Assembly: GCA_043809245.1 (NCBI GenBank)
Contig: JAZDDZ010000048.1
Location: forward strand, 1 to 51,356
DNA length: 51,356 bases
Origin: Candidatus Iainarchaeum sp.
GTDB lineage: Archaea > Iainarchaeota > Iainarchaeia > Iainarchaeales > JAZDDZ01
Direction: 5' to 3'
Shown here piece by piece: positions 12,296 to 17,556 of the stretch. Position 1 is the first letter of the stretch. Each line of letters begins with the position of its first letter. The notes beneath the pieces are model-generated. The model saw nothing but the letters and a program-made list of their open reading frames with translations. It was not told the DNA's origin and made no database searches. Made by a program: the position numbers and the translations under genes.

Positions 12296-13513
12296 TTAAG
12301 CCTTAACCGCGGCTTTCTTTATTTCCCCGTTTAAAACTTCGCCTGCGCCGCCGAGGTTAATGAGTTTCTTTAGGCTCTGCAAGAGCTTTGCCTTTTTTGC
12401 GGATTTTTCAAAAGAGTTTTCAAGGACTTCTGAAAGCGTTGAAACGGGAATAACCTTGATTTTCTTCAGTTCTTCTTTTGCAATCACTATGTCCTGCAAG
12501 TTGGCTTTTGGAATAATCACTTCCCTGAAACCAGCCTTGATTGCGGAGCTTACCTTTGCAGTAATGCCGCCGACAGGCATTACTTCGCCTCTCACGCTCA
12601 AGGAACCAGTCATTGCAAGCGATTGTTTCACGGGAATTCCTTCCAACGCGGAAATAACTGCGGTTGCAACTGAAACGCTTGCACTGTCCCCTTCAACCCC
12701 TGAATAGGTTTGCAGGAACTGGATGTGCAAATCAAAAGTGGAAATGTCTTTTCCGCTCAGTTTTTTCACCAAAGCCGAAACATTCTGCACTGCTTCTTTT
12801 GCAATTTCCCCAAGTTTTCCTGTTGCAATGATTTTTCCCTCAGCCCTTGAAGCTGCAGGCGCAACCTCTGCCTCAATCGGCAGAACCAACCCCGCGTCTC
12901 CATCGCCTGAAACCGCCAAGCCGTTAACCCTTCCAACAGCTGTTCCCTCAAAGAGGTAAACCTGGTAATCCCTTTTCTCTTCCAAAATTTTGTTCATCAT
13001 CTGCTGTTCAAGCGTTCTGGCACTCATTTTTGCTTCAAGAACATCCTGCGCTGAAACGGATTTGTGGCCTTTTTCCTTTGCAATGTCTCCCGCGGCCCTC
13101 ACAAGGCCCCCCAAATCACGGAGCTTTAAAGTCAGTTTGTTTTTCCTTCCCGCTCTTCTCCTTGCCTCGAAAACAATTGATTCAACCGCTTCCCTTGAAA
13201 AAGCAGGAATCTTTGCGTCCTTTGCAACTTCCTGTGCAACGAATTGCACTATTTTATCCCTGTTCTCAGGATTATCATCCATGTCCAGGTTCATGTAAAT
13301 CTCGTAACCATAACCCCTGATTCTTGAACGCAAAGCAGGATGCACTTTTCTCAGGTCCTCGTAATTGCCTGCTGCAACCAAAACAAAATCGCAATTATGA
13401 ACAGCAACCCCATTCGCAAGATATGTGCCGGCGCTGGTTTTAAGATTGTAAACCATTCCAGCATAGTCAACCTCTTCAATTGAAACAATTTTTTTGGTGG
13501 AAAAATTAAACAT
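12296..13513 (-). CDS. lonB: LonB protease piece 3: IntC2 (40 aa) plus C-terminal AAA+ part and Ser-Lys protease domain
   Basis: ...[35 protein letters not shown] and PVGGITAK. Confidence 0.95.
13394..13513 (-). mobile_element. Split intein 2, C-terminal half (IntC2)
   Basis: Blocks F/G VYNLKT...[10 protein letters not shown] followed by +1 Cys. Confidence 0.93.
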
Positions 13514-15362
13514 TTAAATCACCTGCCTTTTTCCAGTAAAGCAGGGTAGTGTAAGGCATTTCAAGTTCGCGCGCCGCTCTTTTAAGAGTCAACCCGGCAT
13601 TAAGCAGGTCTGATGCGGTTCTTTTATGCATGGAAGAATAATGCCTATATGTAGGCCCGACTGTTTTCATAATCGTGTTTTTAGAAAGCATGATTCGCCT
13701 GCCAATTTCGTTTATTGTTAAACCGCTTGCCCGAAGCTCCAATGCCTTGGCTTTGTTTGATCCAAGCTCAACGCAATCTTCAGAGTATGCAACAGCTTTT
13801 CCAAACCGTTTTTTCATGTACTGTGCTTTACGGCTTGCATAATGAATTTGAACTGCCTTTTCAAATTGCATCACATTCTTATAATTATTGAAAATAGTAA
13901 AAGAATAACGCGCTGCTTTTTCAGCAGCACCCCCCTTGGATCTCGTATATTCTGTTGCCGTGATTTTACTGGTTTCCACGCCGTTTTCAGACAAAAAAGC
14001 CCTTATCTCATTTAAAAAAGCTAAATGTTGCTTTTCAAACCTTTTAACCTTGGCCATCACAAAAGAAATTTTATCGCTAGCGTTTTTTATTTTACCGCAC
14101 ATTTCACAGGATAACAATGCTGAAAAGAACTCCTTTTTTGTTTCGGCAGAAAAATTAATCCACAATGGAACAGCAATTGGCTTGGGTACCTTGCTGCCCA
14201 CTGGGACTCCGAGCGCTGAGAAAAAACGTGAAATGAAAGCATTATGCGCTGAAACTTCTAATCCGCTTCCTTTTAGGGAAGTCGTTTTTCTAAAAACAAA
14301 ATTTGAACTCAAATCTGTTCCAAAAACCTGGAGCAAATCGCGCTTAAACATCTCCAAGTCCGCCAAACTATTTGAATCTGTTGAAAAAAAAACGCCTGTT
14401 CTTGTTAAACCCCCATCACCGAACAGTGCTCCGCTAATCCTTGCAATCAACGGTAATCTGGGATCCGAATAAAGCAAAGGAAATAACCCTCTTTCCCCCA
14501 ACCAATCAATGCAACGGGAAGCCCTTGGAACAGTTCCTTTTTTCCAAGCAGCAATTGTTTTGCAATCTACCCCCAGACCTCTGGCCTTCAATAAGGGGTT
14601 TGCCTTCCAAGCAGCATATGCTTTTGCAATGCGCTGATTTTCTTTACTGTAGGTTTCCATAATTTTCACATCAGAAATTATTGCCTGAATTGCTTCCACT
14701 TCCTGCCAAAGGCTAAGGTCTTTTGCCTGAACAAAATCAGCCGGTGTTTTAATCGGATGCTCTTTGGTCGCCAATAATTCAGTGCCATCGTCAAAAATAA
14801 TTTTCATCAGTTTACCAGAAAATGGCCTCCTGTAAACCCGTTCAAGCATATCCAAAAAAATTCCATTATCTTTTGGAACCCAAATTTTAATAGAATCATT
14901 TAAGTCCAAAAACTCAGCATAGCCCTCTCTGTTAACTTGCCCTGCTCTGCTTTCAAACAACCTGTTTACAAACTCGTCAATCGCGGTTAATCCGTTTTCA
15001 GTGGCAATTAATGTTCCGCTTGGAAAACACGGCACTGCCTCAGTCCTAGTCATTGCCCCGCTTGACATCTCGCTCTGGCCTGTAATGGAATACTTTTTTT
15101 CCTGCATTGCGGTCAAAAGCTCCTGCTGTGCCTTGGGTGAAAGCGTTGCAATTTCATCCAAAAACAATACTCCCCCAGAAGAGCGGTGAATCATGCCGGG
15201 TTCAATGCGCAAATGAGGGGGGGTGCCCAAGCCACCGGAATTGTGCACTAAAATATCTTCAACGAACAAGTTGCCGGTTTCAGTCGTAACGTTGTAAACG
15301 TGGCCTTTGAATGGGTGCTTTTTCACGGAAGAAACATTTCCCTGCGTGGTTTTGTAATTCAT
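13506..15362 (-). CDS. lonB: LonB piece 2: IntC1 (41 aa), 70-aa Walker B extein, IntN2 with LAGLIDADG and HTH domains (507 aa)
   Basis: ...[12 protein letters not shown]...VLFLDE...[11 protein letters not shown]; block [14 protein letters not shown]. Confidence 0.93.
13509..15029 (-). mobile_element. Split intein 2, N-terminal half (IntN2) with fused homing endonuclease
   Basis: Cys1 CFPSGTLI, TxxH block B, LAGLIDADG-like [10 protein letters not shown], two C-terminal HTH-like segments; ends in a stop codon without blocks F/G. Confidence 0.9.
13518..13524 (-). promoter_or_regulatory. Shine-Dalgarno AGGTGAT for Lon piece 3
   Basis: Minus strand reads GCAGGTGATTTAAATGTTTAA: SD 4 nt before the ATG, with an 8-nt overlap of the upstream ORF. 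Confidence 0.8.
15240..15362 (-). mobile_element. Split intein 1, C-terminal half (IntC1)
   Basis: [20 protein letters not shown] followed by +1 Ser. Confidence 0.93.
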
Positions 15363-15384
15363 AAATAGTTCCTCTTACAAAAAC

Positions 15385-15393
15385 ATTAAATAG
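15385..15393 (-). promoter_or_regulatory. TATA-like box (CTATTTAAT) of a putative internal promoter for Lon piece 2
   Basis: Lies 22 nt upstream of ATG 15362; start context CTATTTATG is identical to that of Lon piece 1 (17556) and gene 18443. Confidence 0.55.
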
Positions 15394-15496
15394 GTTGCTC
15401 TGGGAACAGCAAGATTCCAACATGCAATAACTGCCACAACCCGCGGCATTCAAATTAAACCGCTACATGACAATAGCGCACCACCTTGTCTGGCAT

Positions 15497-16471: not shown

Positions 16472-16502
16472 TAAAGAATTCCTTTTTCCGGCAATATCTT
16501 TG

Positions 16503-16532
16503 TTTCGGGACAGGGAGTGGATTTCCGCTGCG
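16503..16532 (-). promoter_or_regulatory. Shared upstream motif, copy B (CGCAGCGGAAATCCACTCCCTGTCCCGAAA)
   Basis: Inside the 92-nt spacer between the IntN1 stop and the endonuclease ATG; matches copies A, C and D. Confidence 0.75.
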
Positions 16533-16563
16533 ATATTAAATAGCCCGGCAATGAACTATTGCA

Positions 16564-17556
16564 TTATGCTTTCGCCAGCGTTATCAGCTTGTCTGCAGGA
16601 GAAATTTTTTCCGCAGCCTTGTCCTTGCCCGAAGTGATGACCTTGTGTTCAGGCGTAACTGTTACCTTATTTTTGCCTGACTGGATGTCGACTAATTCGC
16701 CGTCAAAAGGCTTTCTGTTGAGTGAAAGTATTCTGGAAAAAATAACTTCACCATTTTTATAGCCAAGGGTGAAAATTTTTTCTTTTTCAGGAAGCATTAT
16801 TGCTTCGTATCCTTTTTCTGCTTTGATTATCTCCGCAAAATATTTTTGGCTCATTTCATCCCAAAGTTTTTCAAATGAAATTTTTTTCACAATTCCATTT
16901 GAGATTAGTATTAACTCGTTAACGTTAACAAAACATTGAAGTGGATCGTGACGAACATCGCCAAGCAGTGCGCCTGCCCTTGCACCGGTAGCTTCAACGA
17001 ATGGCGCGATTTTTTTGCCTGAATTGTCAACCAAGAGCTTCGGCGTTTGAGCAGAGGAACGCGAACGCATCTGCGAGCCAACCGCAAAGCCAATCAATAA
17101 AAAGCCGCCTAAAATAAGTGTCGCGGCATAAACAATATCTGAAATGAATCCAAGCTGCCAGATGACGCTTGAAAGAATGAAGAACCCAAGCGGAAGCAGG
17201 AAACCCATTAACCGCATGTTGTCTTCCTCTCCTTTTGAGTCAGCCCTTGCCCGCTGGACAAGCTTTTTTCCCTCTCCCGCTTTCACAAGCCTTACCTTTG
17301 GGTTATTGGGGTCGGCTTTGTTGGGGTAAATAAGTATGTCGCTTAATTGCTGGACTGGCATCAATTCAGCCATTGCCTGAGCCAACATCGACTTGCCGGT
17401 GCCAGGGAGTCCAACCAACAAAACATTCCTTTTCTGGGCAGCGGCTTTCTTGATTAATTCAACGCTGCTGTCCTGGCCTAAAACCTGGTCAACCAGGCGC
17501 TTTGGAACCGGAATTTCTTTGGTGGACTCAAACTTCTTTGAAACCAAATCAGGCAT
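16564..17556 (-). CDS. lonB: LonB piece 1: N-terminal extein (207 aa; Walker A and two TM helices) plus IntN1 (123 aa)
   Basis: LVDQVLGQ, GLPGTGKS, hydrophobic insert, GALLGDVRHDPLQ|CFVNV; start moved to ATG 17556. Confidence 0.95.
   Translation of the reverse strand: MPDLVSKKFESTKEIPVPKRLVDQVLGQDSSVELIKKAAAQKRNVLLVGLPGTGKSMLAQAMAELMPVQQLSDILIYPNKADPNNPKVRLVKAGEGKKLVQRARADSKGEEDNMRLMGFLLPLGFFILSSVIWQLGFISDIVYAATLILGGFLLIGFAVGSQMRSRSSAQTPKLLVDNSGKKIAPFVEATGARAGALLGDVRHDPLQCFVNVNELILISNGIVKKISFEKLWDEMSQKYFAEIIKAEKGYEAIMLPEKEKIFTLGYKNGEVIFSRILSLNRKPFDGELVDIQSGKNKVTVTPEHKVITSGKDKAAEKISPADKLITLAKA
16567..16935 (-). mobile_element. Split intein 1, N-terminal half (IntN1)
   Basis: Cys1 and block B VTVTPEHKV, then TAA about 22 codons later. 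Confidence 0.92.

Follow-up and report, generated by a model that had tools for sequence, protein, structure and literature searches.

A lonB gene in three pieces and two split inteins in an Iainarchaeales genome

How could an archaeon obtain a working LonB protease from a gene that is not in one piece? The question is raised by the window analysed here, a stretch of 51,356 nucleotides (nt) from Candidatus Iainarchaeum sp. (contig JAZDDZ010000048.1, assembly GCA_043809245.1), in which lonB is spread along the minus strand between 12296 and 17607. The listing of open reading frames (ORFs) shows four consecutive ORFs there, no two of them in one frame; three (pieces 1, 2 and 3) carry parts of LonB fused to the halves of two inteins, and the fourth lies inside the first break. 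The evidence presented below makes it highly probable that the gene is functional in this three-piece form and that two trans-splicing events complete its product. The genome to which the window belongs (G000) comprises 1.48 Mb in 55 contigs and is 91.8% complete; near homologues carry names that place the organism among the DPANN archaea.

Three pieces of one protease and the inteins between them

The extein parts of the three pieces add up to one LonB. Pieces 1, 2 and 3 match positions 3-217, 181-268 and 266-607 respectively of TIGR00764, the LonB model of NCBIfam, whose cut-off of 516.6 bits is reached by no single piece (piece 3 scores 512.7), and the exteins tile the intein-less LonB of a relative (G021) without any gap, at residues 9-209, 208-279 and 279-624, with 66, 79 and 75% identity. 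Piece 1 contributes the Walker A motif (GLPGTGKS) and two hydrophobic membrane segments, and its extein ends in GDVRHDPLQ; the Lon_C and LonB AAA lid families of Pfam are both found in piece 3. Taken together, the pieces show the hallmarks of an archaeal LonB: both Walker motifs (A and B), the membrane segments and the Ser-Lys protease domain. The original prediction, which had placed lonB in three ORFs and expected a normal LonB of 642 amino acids (aa) after removal of the inteins, held in every detail of coordinates and piece sizes when compared with the ORFs, with TIGR00764 and with the gap-free tiling on G021 (Table 1).

Both inteins show a nucleophile at residue 1, the TxxH motif (block B of inteins), a C-terminal Asn followed by Ser or Cys at position +1, and halves located on separate ORFs, as is typical of split inteins. 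In the window, both retain Cys1, TxxH, the terminal HN and the +1 Ser or Cys; these residues had been foreseen at the junctions DPLQ/SGGLG and EAVP/CDFV, where they were recovered and are also conserved in relatives. Among homologues of the N-terminal half of intein 1 (IntN1), TPEH is invariant (10/10) and residue 1 is Cys in five and Ser in the other five, and among those of its C-terminal half (IntC1) the terminal Asn (N41) and Ser+1 (S42) are found in all 13, with His (nine), Ser (three) or Cys (one) as the penultimate residue. A Ser at residue 1 of an intein, and Ser or Cys in place of the penultimate His, are still allowed as nucleophile or assisting residues. For the N-terminal half of the second intein (IntN2), all 20 sequences compared (19 public piece-2 proteins plus that of the window) share C112, T199, H202, D316 and E420, and its C-terminal half (IntC2) reads VHN followed by CDF in all ten extracted homologues, the extraction pattern itself having required N-CDF. 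IntN2 also embeds a LAGLIDADG-type endonuclease domain (ALFGDGG, SCEMCG), to which profile matches extend over 13779-14687, and this domain is followed by a C-terminal helix-turn-helix (HTH)-like tail.

The two naturally split inteins of lonB are different members of a single diverged family; they are homologous (E 7e-29), but with 26% identity along some 400 residues they stand far apart. Cross-pairing between them is unlikely because they are only 26% identical, and the two pairs are, to judge from their sequences, probably orthogonal. The docking of the first pair was modelled with IntN1 and IntC1, each bearing ten extein residues, using alignments of 10 and 13 sequences; the complex scored 0.87 versus 0.00 for the best of three controls, on a scale whose mark 58 of 80 solved complexes and 2 of 110 mismatched pairs attain. 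The model runs share at least 90% of their contacts, with a predicted local distance difference test (pLDDT) of the partner of at least 78, and the model is consistent with docking of IntN1 with IntC1.

Docking could also be all that the intein halves provide. LonB would then be a complex of three chains with no covalent joining and the halves would act as mere interaction domains, a situation with a parallel in PMC3045599, according to which the parts of a fragmented ribonucleotide reductase are brought together by interaction domains that stem from a mobile element. The complex model agrees with this idea to the extent that it speaks for docking and not for chemistry. However, every splicing residue (Cys or Ser at residue 1, TxxH, the terminal Asn and the +1 Ser or Cys) is kept across distant relatives, which is not expected under selection for binding alone. 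Additionally, an unspliced IntN2 of ~500 aa would separate Walker B from the next strand in a hexameric AAA+ ATPase. A purely non-covalent complex is consequently improbable, although it survives better than the other alternatives considered below.

Under trans-splicing, piece 1 would enter the membrane via its two hydrophobic segments, with IntN1 facing the cytoplasm, and pieces 2 and 3 would come from one transcript by coupled translation. IntC1 would dock on IntN1 to complete a Hint fold in which Cys1, Ser+1 and the terminal Asn join DPLQ to SGGLG; IntN2, with its endonuclease and HTH domains, would dock with IntC2, and Cys1, Cys+1 and Asn would join EAVP to CDFV. Two class-1 splicing reactions would in this way produce the 642-aa LonB. 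That the two reactions are sequential and take place at the membrane, as the original prediction has it, is something that we infer.

Table 1. Features of the lonB locus, with positions in the window
Feature	Position	Strand	Length	Characteristics
Piece 1 ORF	16564-17607	minus	330 aa from ATG at 17556	16564-17607 is counted from TTG; stop 16564-16566
LonB N-extein	16936-17556	minus	207 aa	TIGR00764 positions 3-217; tiling on G021
IntN1	16567-16935	minus	123 aa	Cys1 (CFVNVNEL), TPEH (block B); intein_Nterm match
Spacer	16472-16563	minus	92 nt	box TATTTAAT at 16535-16542
Free-standing homing-endonuclease ORF (predicted)	15497-16471	minus	324 aa	LAGLIDADG fold in the model; motifs LFGDGG, FLDGYLASE
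Spacer	15363-15496	minus	134 nt	TATA-like TATTTAAT at 15385-15392, 22 nt upstream of the piece-2 ATG
Piece 2 ORF	13506-15362	minus	618 aa	IntC1, middle extein and IntN2
IntC1	15240-15362	minus	41 aa	C-terminal end FVEDILVHN
Middle extein, SGGLGTP...EAVP	15030-15239	minus	70 aa	Walker B VLFLDEI; TIGR00764 positions 181-268
IntN2	13509-15029	minus	507 aa	Cys1 (CFPSGT), TKEH; stop 13506-13508
Shine-Dalgarno-like AGGTGAT	13518-13524	minus		4 nt ahead of the piece-3 ATG
Overlap of piece-2 stop and piece-3 start	13506-13513	minus	8 nt	ATGTTTAA
Piece 3 ORF	12296-13513	minus	405 aa	IntC2 and C-extein
IntC2	13394-13513	minus	40 aa	C-terminal end ANGVAVHN
LonB C-extein, from CDFV	12299-13393	minus	365 aa	AAA lid, Lon_C protease domain, GDSAS serine; stop 12296-12298

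The first break and the recurrence of both breaks in relatives

The 324-aa ORF within break 1 had been left unnamed in the original prediction. It has no Pfam family and no PDB sequence match below E 0.3; it matches the intein region of the RtcB_rel_intein model and, with 35% identity (E 1e-37), the endonuclease part of the contiguous intein in an Archaeoglobus-labelled LonB. Its AlphaFold (AF2) model (pLDDT 87) gives I-Tsp061I (E 2e-7), E-DreI, I-DmoI and PI-SceI as top Foldseek matches in PDB, and by this predicted structure the ORF is a LAGLIDADG-fold homing endonuclease with a double alpha-beta-beta-alpha-beta-beta-alpha arrangement and two acidic motif residues. Six free-standing endonuclease ORFs of related genomes are 54-71% identical to that of the window, and the motif acids D104 and E207 are invariant (6/6). 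Because a free-standing gene for a LAGLIDADG-fold endonuclease sits inside it, break 1 falls under the term 'fractured gene' as used by Dassa 2009. The two halves flank the endonuclease ORF in G000, G035, G127, G011, G024 and G039; G009 and G001 are endonuclease-free between the halves, and G009 has an ORF on the opposite strand there. An ORF of ~230-260 aa with a weak match to Zn-dependent phospholipase C is also located between lonB halves in G001 (L025:4342-5022) and G011 (L026:3069-3794). Elsewhere in the window genome, a 361-aa open frame (G000:C47:94609-95118) weakly matches the endonuclease profile (E 1.3e-6) and may be another free-standing endonuclease.

The spacers on both sides of the endonuclease ORF have the predicted sizes of 92 and 134 nt, and the promoter-like elements claimed for them correspond to TATA-like boxes recognized by eye. 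Upstream of the ATG of the IntC1-bearing piece, at a distance of a few tens of nt, such a box (TATTTAAT, TATTTAAC, TTTTTAAC, TTTAAAAT and others) was seen in nine of nine loci, and this ATG is found 17-20 codons ahead of KGHVYN in the same number of loci (9/9). The block of the 92-nt spacer (CGGAAATCCACTCCC...), with its TATA-like element, recurs upstream of the endonuclease ORF in five of six loci, also as judged by eye. In the contiguous homologue of G031, the end of the N-lobe (KLFLHD) runs directly into the endonuclease (EIILDEEDIIQTFS); since this homologue has no such spacers, those of break 1 are additions and not mere frameshifts.

The same architecture was sought in related genomes, and its piece-2 ORF is present in eight of 215, the window genome included. 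In this census, piece 2 was the query against 215 species genomes of the phylum (E<=1e-41), and all 52 matching genomes were listed. The three-piece type, recognized by a piece-2 ORF of 622-665 aa with IntC1 at its head and IntN2 as its last part, is that of G000, G174, G181, G050, G127, G001, G009 and G035 (8/52); in five of these eight, piece 1 is on the contig of piece 2, and in the other three the contig ends first. A split at site 1 only, with an ORF of 186-572 aa in which IntC1 is followed by the rest of LonB, is by far the most frequent form (36/52), a split at site 2 only is that of G183 and G184 (2/52), and a contiguous site-1 intein is the sole form in the remaining six. The break positions are identical throughout, and the 196 genomes of the order give the same picture. 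Public databases add about 20 near-full-length piece-2 proteins (37-72% identity, among the best 120 of 1458 matches), and all 20 aligned piece-2 proteins terminate at one point, after PY.T..YWK. Some of the public proteins, from Candidatus Diapherotrites or Micrarchaeota, are annotated as 'sigma 54-interacting transcriptional regulator', which is wrong for piece 2.

Single genomes extend this range. The site-2-only split of G184 (L040:1842-3293, 3233-4480) has an IntN2 without endonuclease, of which about 140 aa are left, apparently a mini split intein that arose in nature from intein 2. In G017, the lonB halves lie at L034:1389-2456 and L033:1407-2897, and because these are different contigs with unrelated neighbouring genes, the halves are probably unlinked in the genome. 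Piece 1 of G001 (L025:1803-4268) harbors an extra contiguous intein inside Walker A (GTGK/C...SHN/S), which brings this lonB to three inteins, one cis and two split. G134, one of the 36 genomes counted as split at site 1 only, possesses a contiguous-intein lonB (L044:1152-4349) and a site-1-split lonB (L045) on different contigs; it shows ~3% contamination and may be a strain mix. Contiguous homologues of intein 1 were found in G031 and in Archaeoglobus-labelled LonB, and those of G031 (L021:1441-4914), G051 (L041:1954-5373) and G046 (L042:2320-5691) have Thr as first residue, unusual for inteins, with DPLQ/TFFP or DPLQ/TIFP at the start and AAN or ISN at the end. No contiguous intein at site 2 was found with the queries used in public proteins, in the order and phylum genomes or among LonB homologues. 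In one genus (g30), intein-less, site-1-split, site-2-split, three-piece and site-2-split alleles lacking the homing endonuclease exist side by side. The endonuclease of break 1 and that inside IntN2 probably allow both elements to go on moving at the DNA level, and such endonuclease-driven mobility would explain the variation in presence and absence within single genera.

A further alternative is that lonB is decaying, its inteins broken by mutation and the protease no longer made. The four ORFs lie in different frames, and the endonuclease frame of G011 extends without a stop backwards into the last part of piece 1, as after a single frameshift, and both observations would suit a decaying gene. 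They are opposed by the identical break points in eight species genomes with piece 2 and 36 split at site 1 only, by the spacers with start signals that are missing from the contiguous homologue of G031, and by the integrity of the protease itself, with intact Walker A, Walker B and GDSAS motifs and exteins 66-79% identical to an intein-less orthologue. A replacement was also looked for, and no second lonB was found in the window genome; the other Lon_C match, on contig C53, is a partial protease domain only and also occurs in most relatives. In a quick maximum-likelihood tree of 37 C-exteins, the split forms cluster with members of their own families whose lonB is intein-less or carries a cis-intein (support of 88 for f2, 95 for f24 and 98 for f30), which suggests that the host gene follows the organisms while inteins come and go. 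The end branches of the split forms measure 0.08-0.48 versus a median of 0.34 and are thus not lengthened beyond it. Decay is therefore very unlikely, and the original view that the breaks are evolved and not erroneous is borne out by the shared break points, the start signals, the stop/start overlaps at break 2, the conserved residues and the branch lengths, with no second lonB found in this 91.8%-complete genome.

The second break and the weight of the evidence

At break 2, the predicted AGGTGAT 4 nt before an overlapping ATG was seen as claimed. The stop of piece 2 and the start of piece 3 overlap by 8, 8, 1 and 4 nt in G000, G035, G009 and G001 respectively, and a Shine-Dalgarno-like motif (GGTGAT, GGGGTG or GAGGAG) precedes each overlap (4/4 loci). 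A stop/start overlap of 1-8 nt at all four loci examined is also what a programmed frameshift could use, in which case pieces 2 and 3 would be one chain with a cis-splicing intein, and the only true split would be that of break 1. Reading through, however, takes a +1 shift at two loci and a -1 shift at the other two, with no common slippery sequence visible, and these differing frame offsets argue against a programmed frameshift. The Shine-Dalgarno-like motif lies 4-8 nt ahead of the ATG each time, the signature of coupled re-initiation, and the piece-2 tail past YWK is variable, whereas the first residues of piece 3 are conserved from Met onward. On these sequence features break 2 reads as translational coupling and not as a programmed frameshift, the latter being even less plausible than decay of the gene.

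Assembly or sequencing artefacts at the breaks, which a draft genome of 55 contigs might suggest, have a negligible likelihood and are refuted in practice by the order and phylum censuses, where the breaks recur in independent genomes, and they also fit poorly with the unbroken frames of the other inteins of this genome and with a public-run contig that is identical across break 2. Of the 21 intein_Nterm matches in the window genome, 18 exceed the cut-off, and only the two of lonB are in short frames; the 16 others above the cut-off are all in open frames of 844-1708 aa, which indicates that broken inteins are not a general feature of this assembly. For its 1.48 Mb the genome is very rich in inteins, and the window itself carries on its minus strand (43544-48667) a 1707-aa CDC48-family AAA ATPase ORF with two contiguous inteins (intein_Nterm at 45374-45607 and 47606-47881). 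Reads over the breaks, proposed as a check in the original prediction, gave a partial answer: a search of public runs listed one DNA run (0.07 share of words), labelled groundwater metagenome, and no RNA run with the sequence, and a 428-nt contig from it is identical over 13181-13608 and so spans break 2, although the run may be the source sample, and its contigs cover only 10 of 30 bins of the region, neither side of break 1 being among them. Contigs of low likeness from the run that join ~13390 to ~15070 (~1678 nt apart) may be intein-2-free alleles of other organisms and were not used because their flanks are only 23-32 letters long.

Several points weigh against a functional lonB completed by trans-splicing. 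Trans-splicing itself is deduced from the sequence; the penultimate His of IntC1 is replaced in 4/13 homologues and residue 1 of intein 1 is Ser in 5/10. The complex-model score may reflect memory of solved intein folds, and the model covers pair 1 only; the net charges of the halves show no clear complementarity, unlike those of some known split inteins. The promoter boxes are by-eye readings, and the C-extein tree is a quick version with 17 of its 34 inner forks open. Additionally, since the genome is 91.8% complete, a second lonB could still lie in the part that is missing. Taken with these points, a functional gene in three pieces whose product is joined by two trans-splicing events is still regarded as highly probable.

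lonB among natural and engineered split inteins

The original prediction did not recall such an arrangement having been described, and no account of it was found: searches of the open-access literature in PMC and bioRxiv gave no paper on split LonB inteins or on a natural protein with two split inteins, although intein catalogues in supplements may list them. The abstract of a 2023 preprint states that the inteins known until then came from either a single gene or two genes (10.1101/2023.01.30.526203). Four aspects are considered new: a natural protein with two split inteins, an archaeal 'fractured gene' with a LAGLIDADG endonuclease, a split intein that keeps the endonuclease on its N-half and was found in no other than split form, and a wide spread with polymorphism within genera. 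We lean, by a modest degree, towards the broader view that LonB is the first natural protein made from three separately translated polypeptides via two orthogonal split inteins, and that it belongs to a large and still mobile population of lonB split inteins in one DPANN order, where about a fifth of the species have at least one split, where a single genus can combine intein-less, one-split and two-split alleles, and where one intein is split-only with its homing endonuclease on the N-half.

If true, a split intein can continue homing as a DNA element, and a core quality-control protease can persist for long as a three-piece gene. The many natural alleles (none, either, both, cis, endonuclease-less and unlinked) would offer a system for studying how inteins become split and whether they are still homing. 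Protein ligation tools are built from natural split inteins, of which few exist; lonB offers a natural pair of presumably non-cross-reacting split inteins on one protein, from hosts that are probably mesophilic, as suggested by the groundwater metagenome label on one run. IntN2 tolerates an insertion of 380 aa, and its counterpart in G184 would be a ready-made mini version.

Among known natural split inteins is that of Nanoarchaeum PolB; the split inteins of DnaE and PolB belong to two-piece proteins and are mini-inteins without endonuclease. Like them, lonB is a cellular housekeeping gene in pieces that carry intein halves, and its halves can be unlinked, as is probably the case in G017; unlike them, it involves a second split intein in the same protein, and its IntN2 has retained a complete endonuclease as well as the HTH domain. 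The cyanobacterial DnaE split intein is mentioned in PMC4760082, where ten contiguous LonB inteins of Euryarchaeota are also listed. Intein 1 is homologous to these contiguous euryarchaeal LonB inteins and occupies the same insertion site, between DP(L/F)Q and SGGL; Archaeoglobus-labelled LonB proteins (P0038, P0029) are single open frames of about 1077 aa with cis-splicing inteins, and no site-2 intein was seen in the contiguous-intein LonB homologues examined.

Break 1 resembles the fractured genes described in PMC2677866 (Dassa et al. 2009), in which an N-part fused to IntN, a short spacer, a free-standing endonuclease and an IntC fused to the C-part follow each other on one strand. Those are 26 phage-like loci of marine metagenomes, broken in two, with a Vsr-like endonuclease, and the word LAGLIDADG does not occur in that text. 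The endonuclease of break 1 is not Vsr-like as in the fractured genes of Dassa 2009, its best PDB matches being LAGLIDADG proteins. lonB also differs from the fractured genes (PMC2677866, same text) by its archaeal chromosome, LAGLIDADG fold, second split intein and occurrence in many species of one order. Finally, engineered multi-fragment ligation with orthogonal split inteins, as presented in PMC7090010, also joins several polypeptides in a defined order; that system is man-made, whereas lonB is natural.

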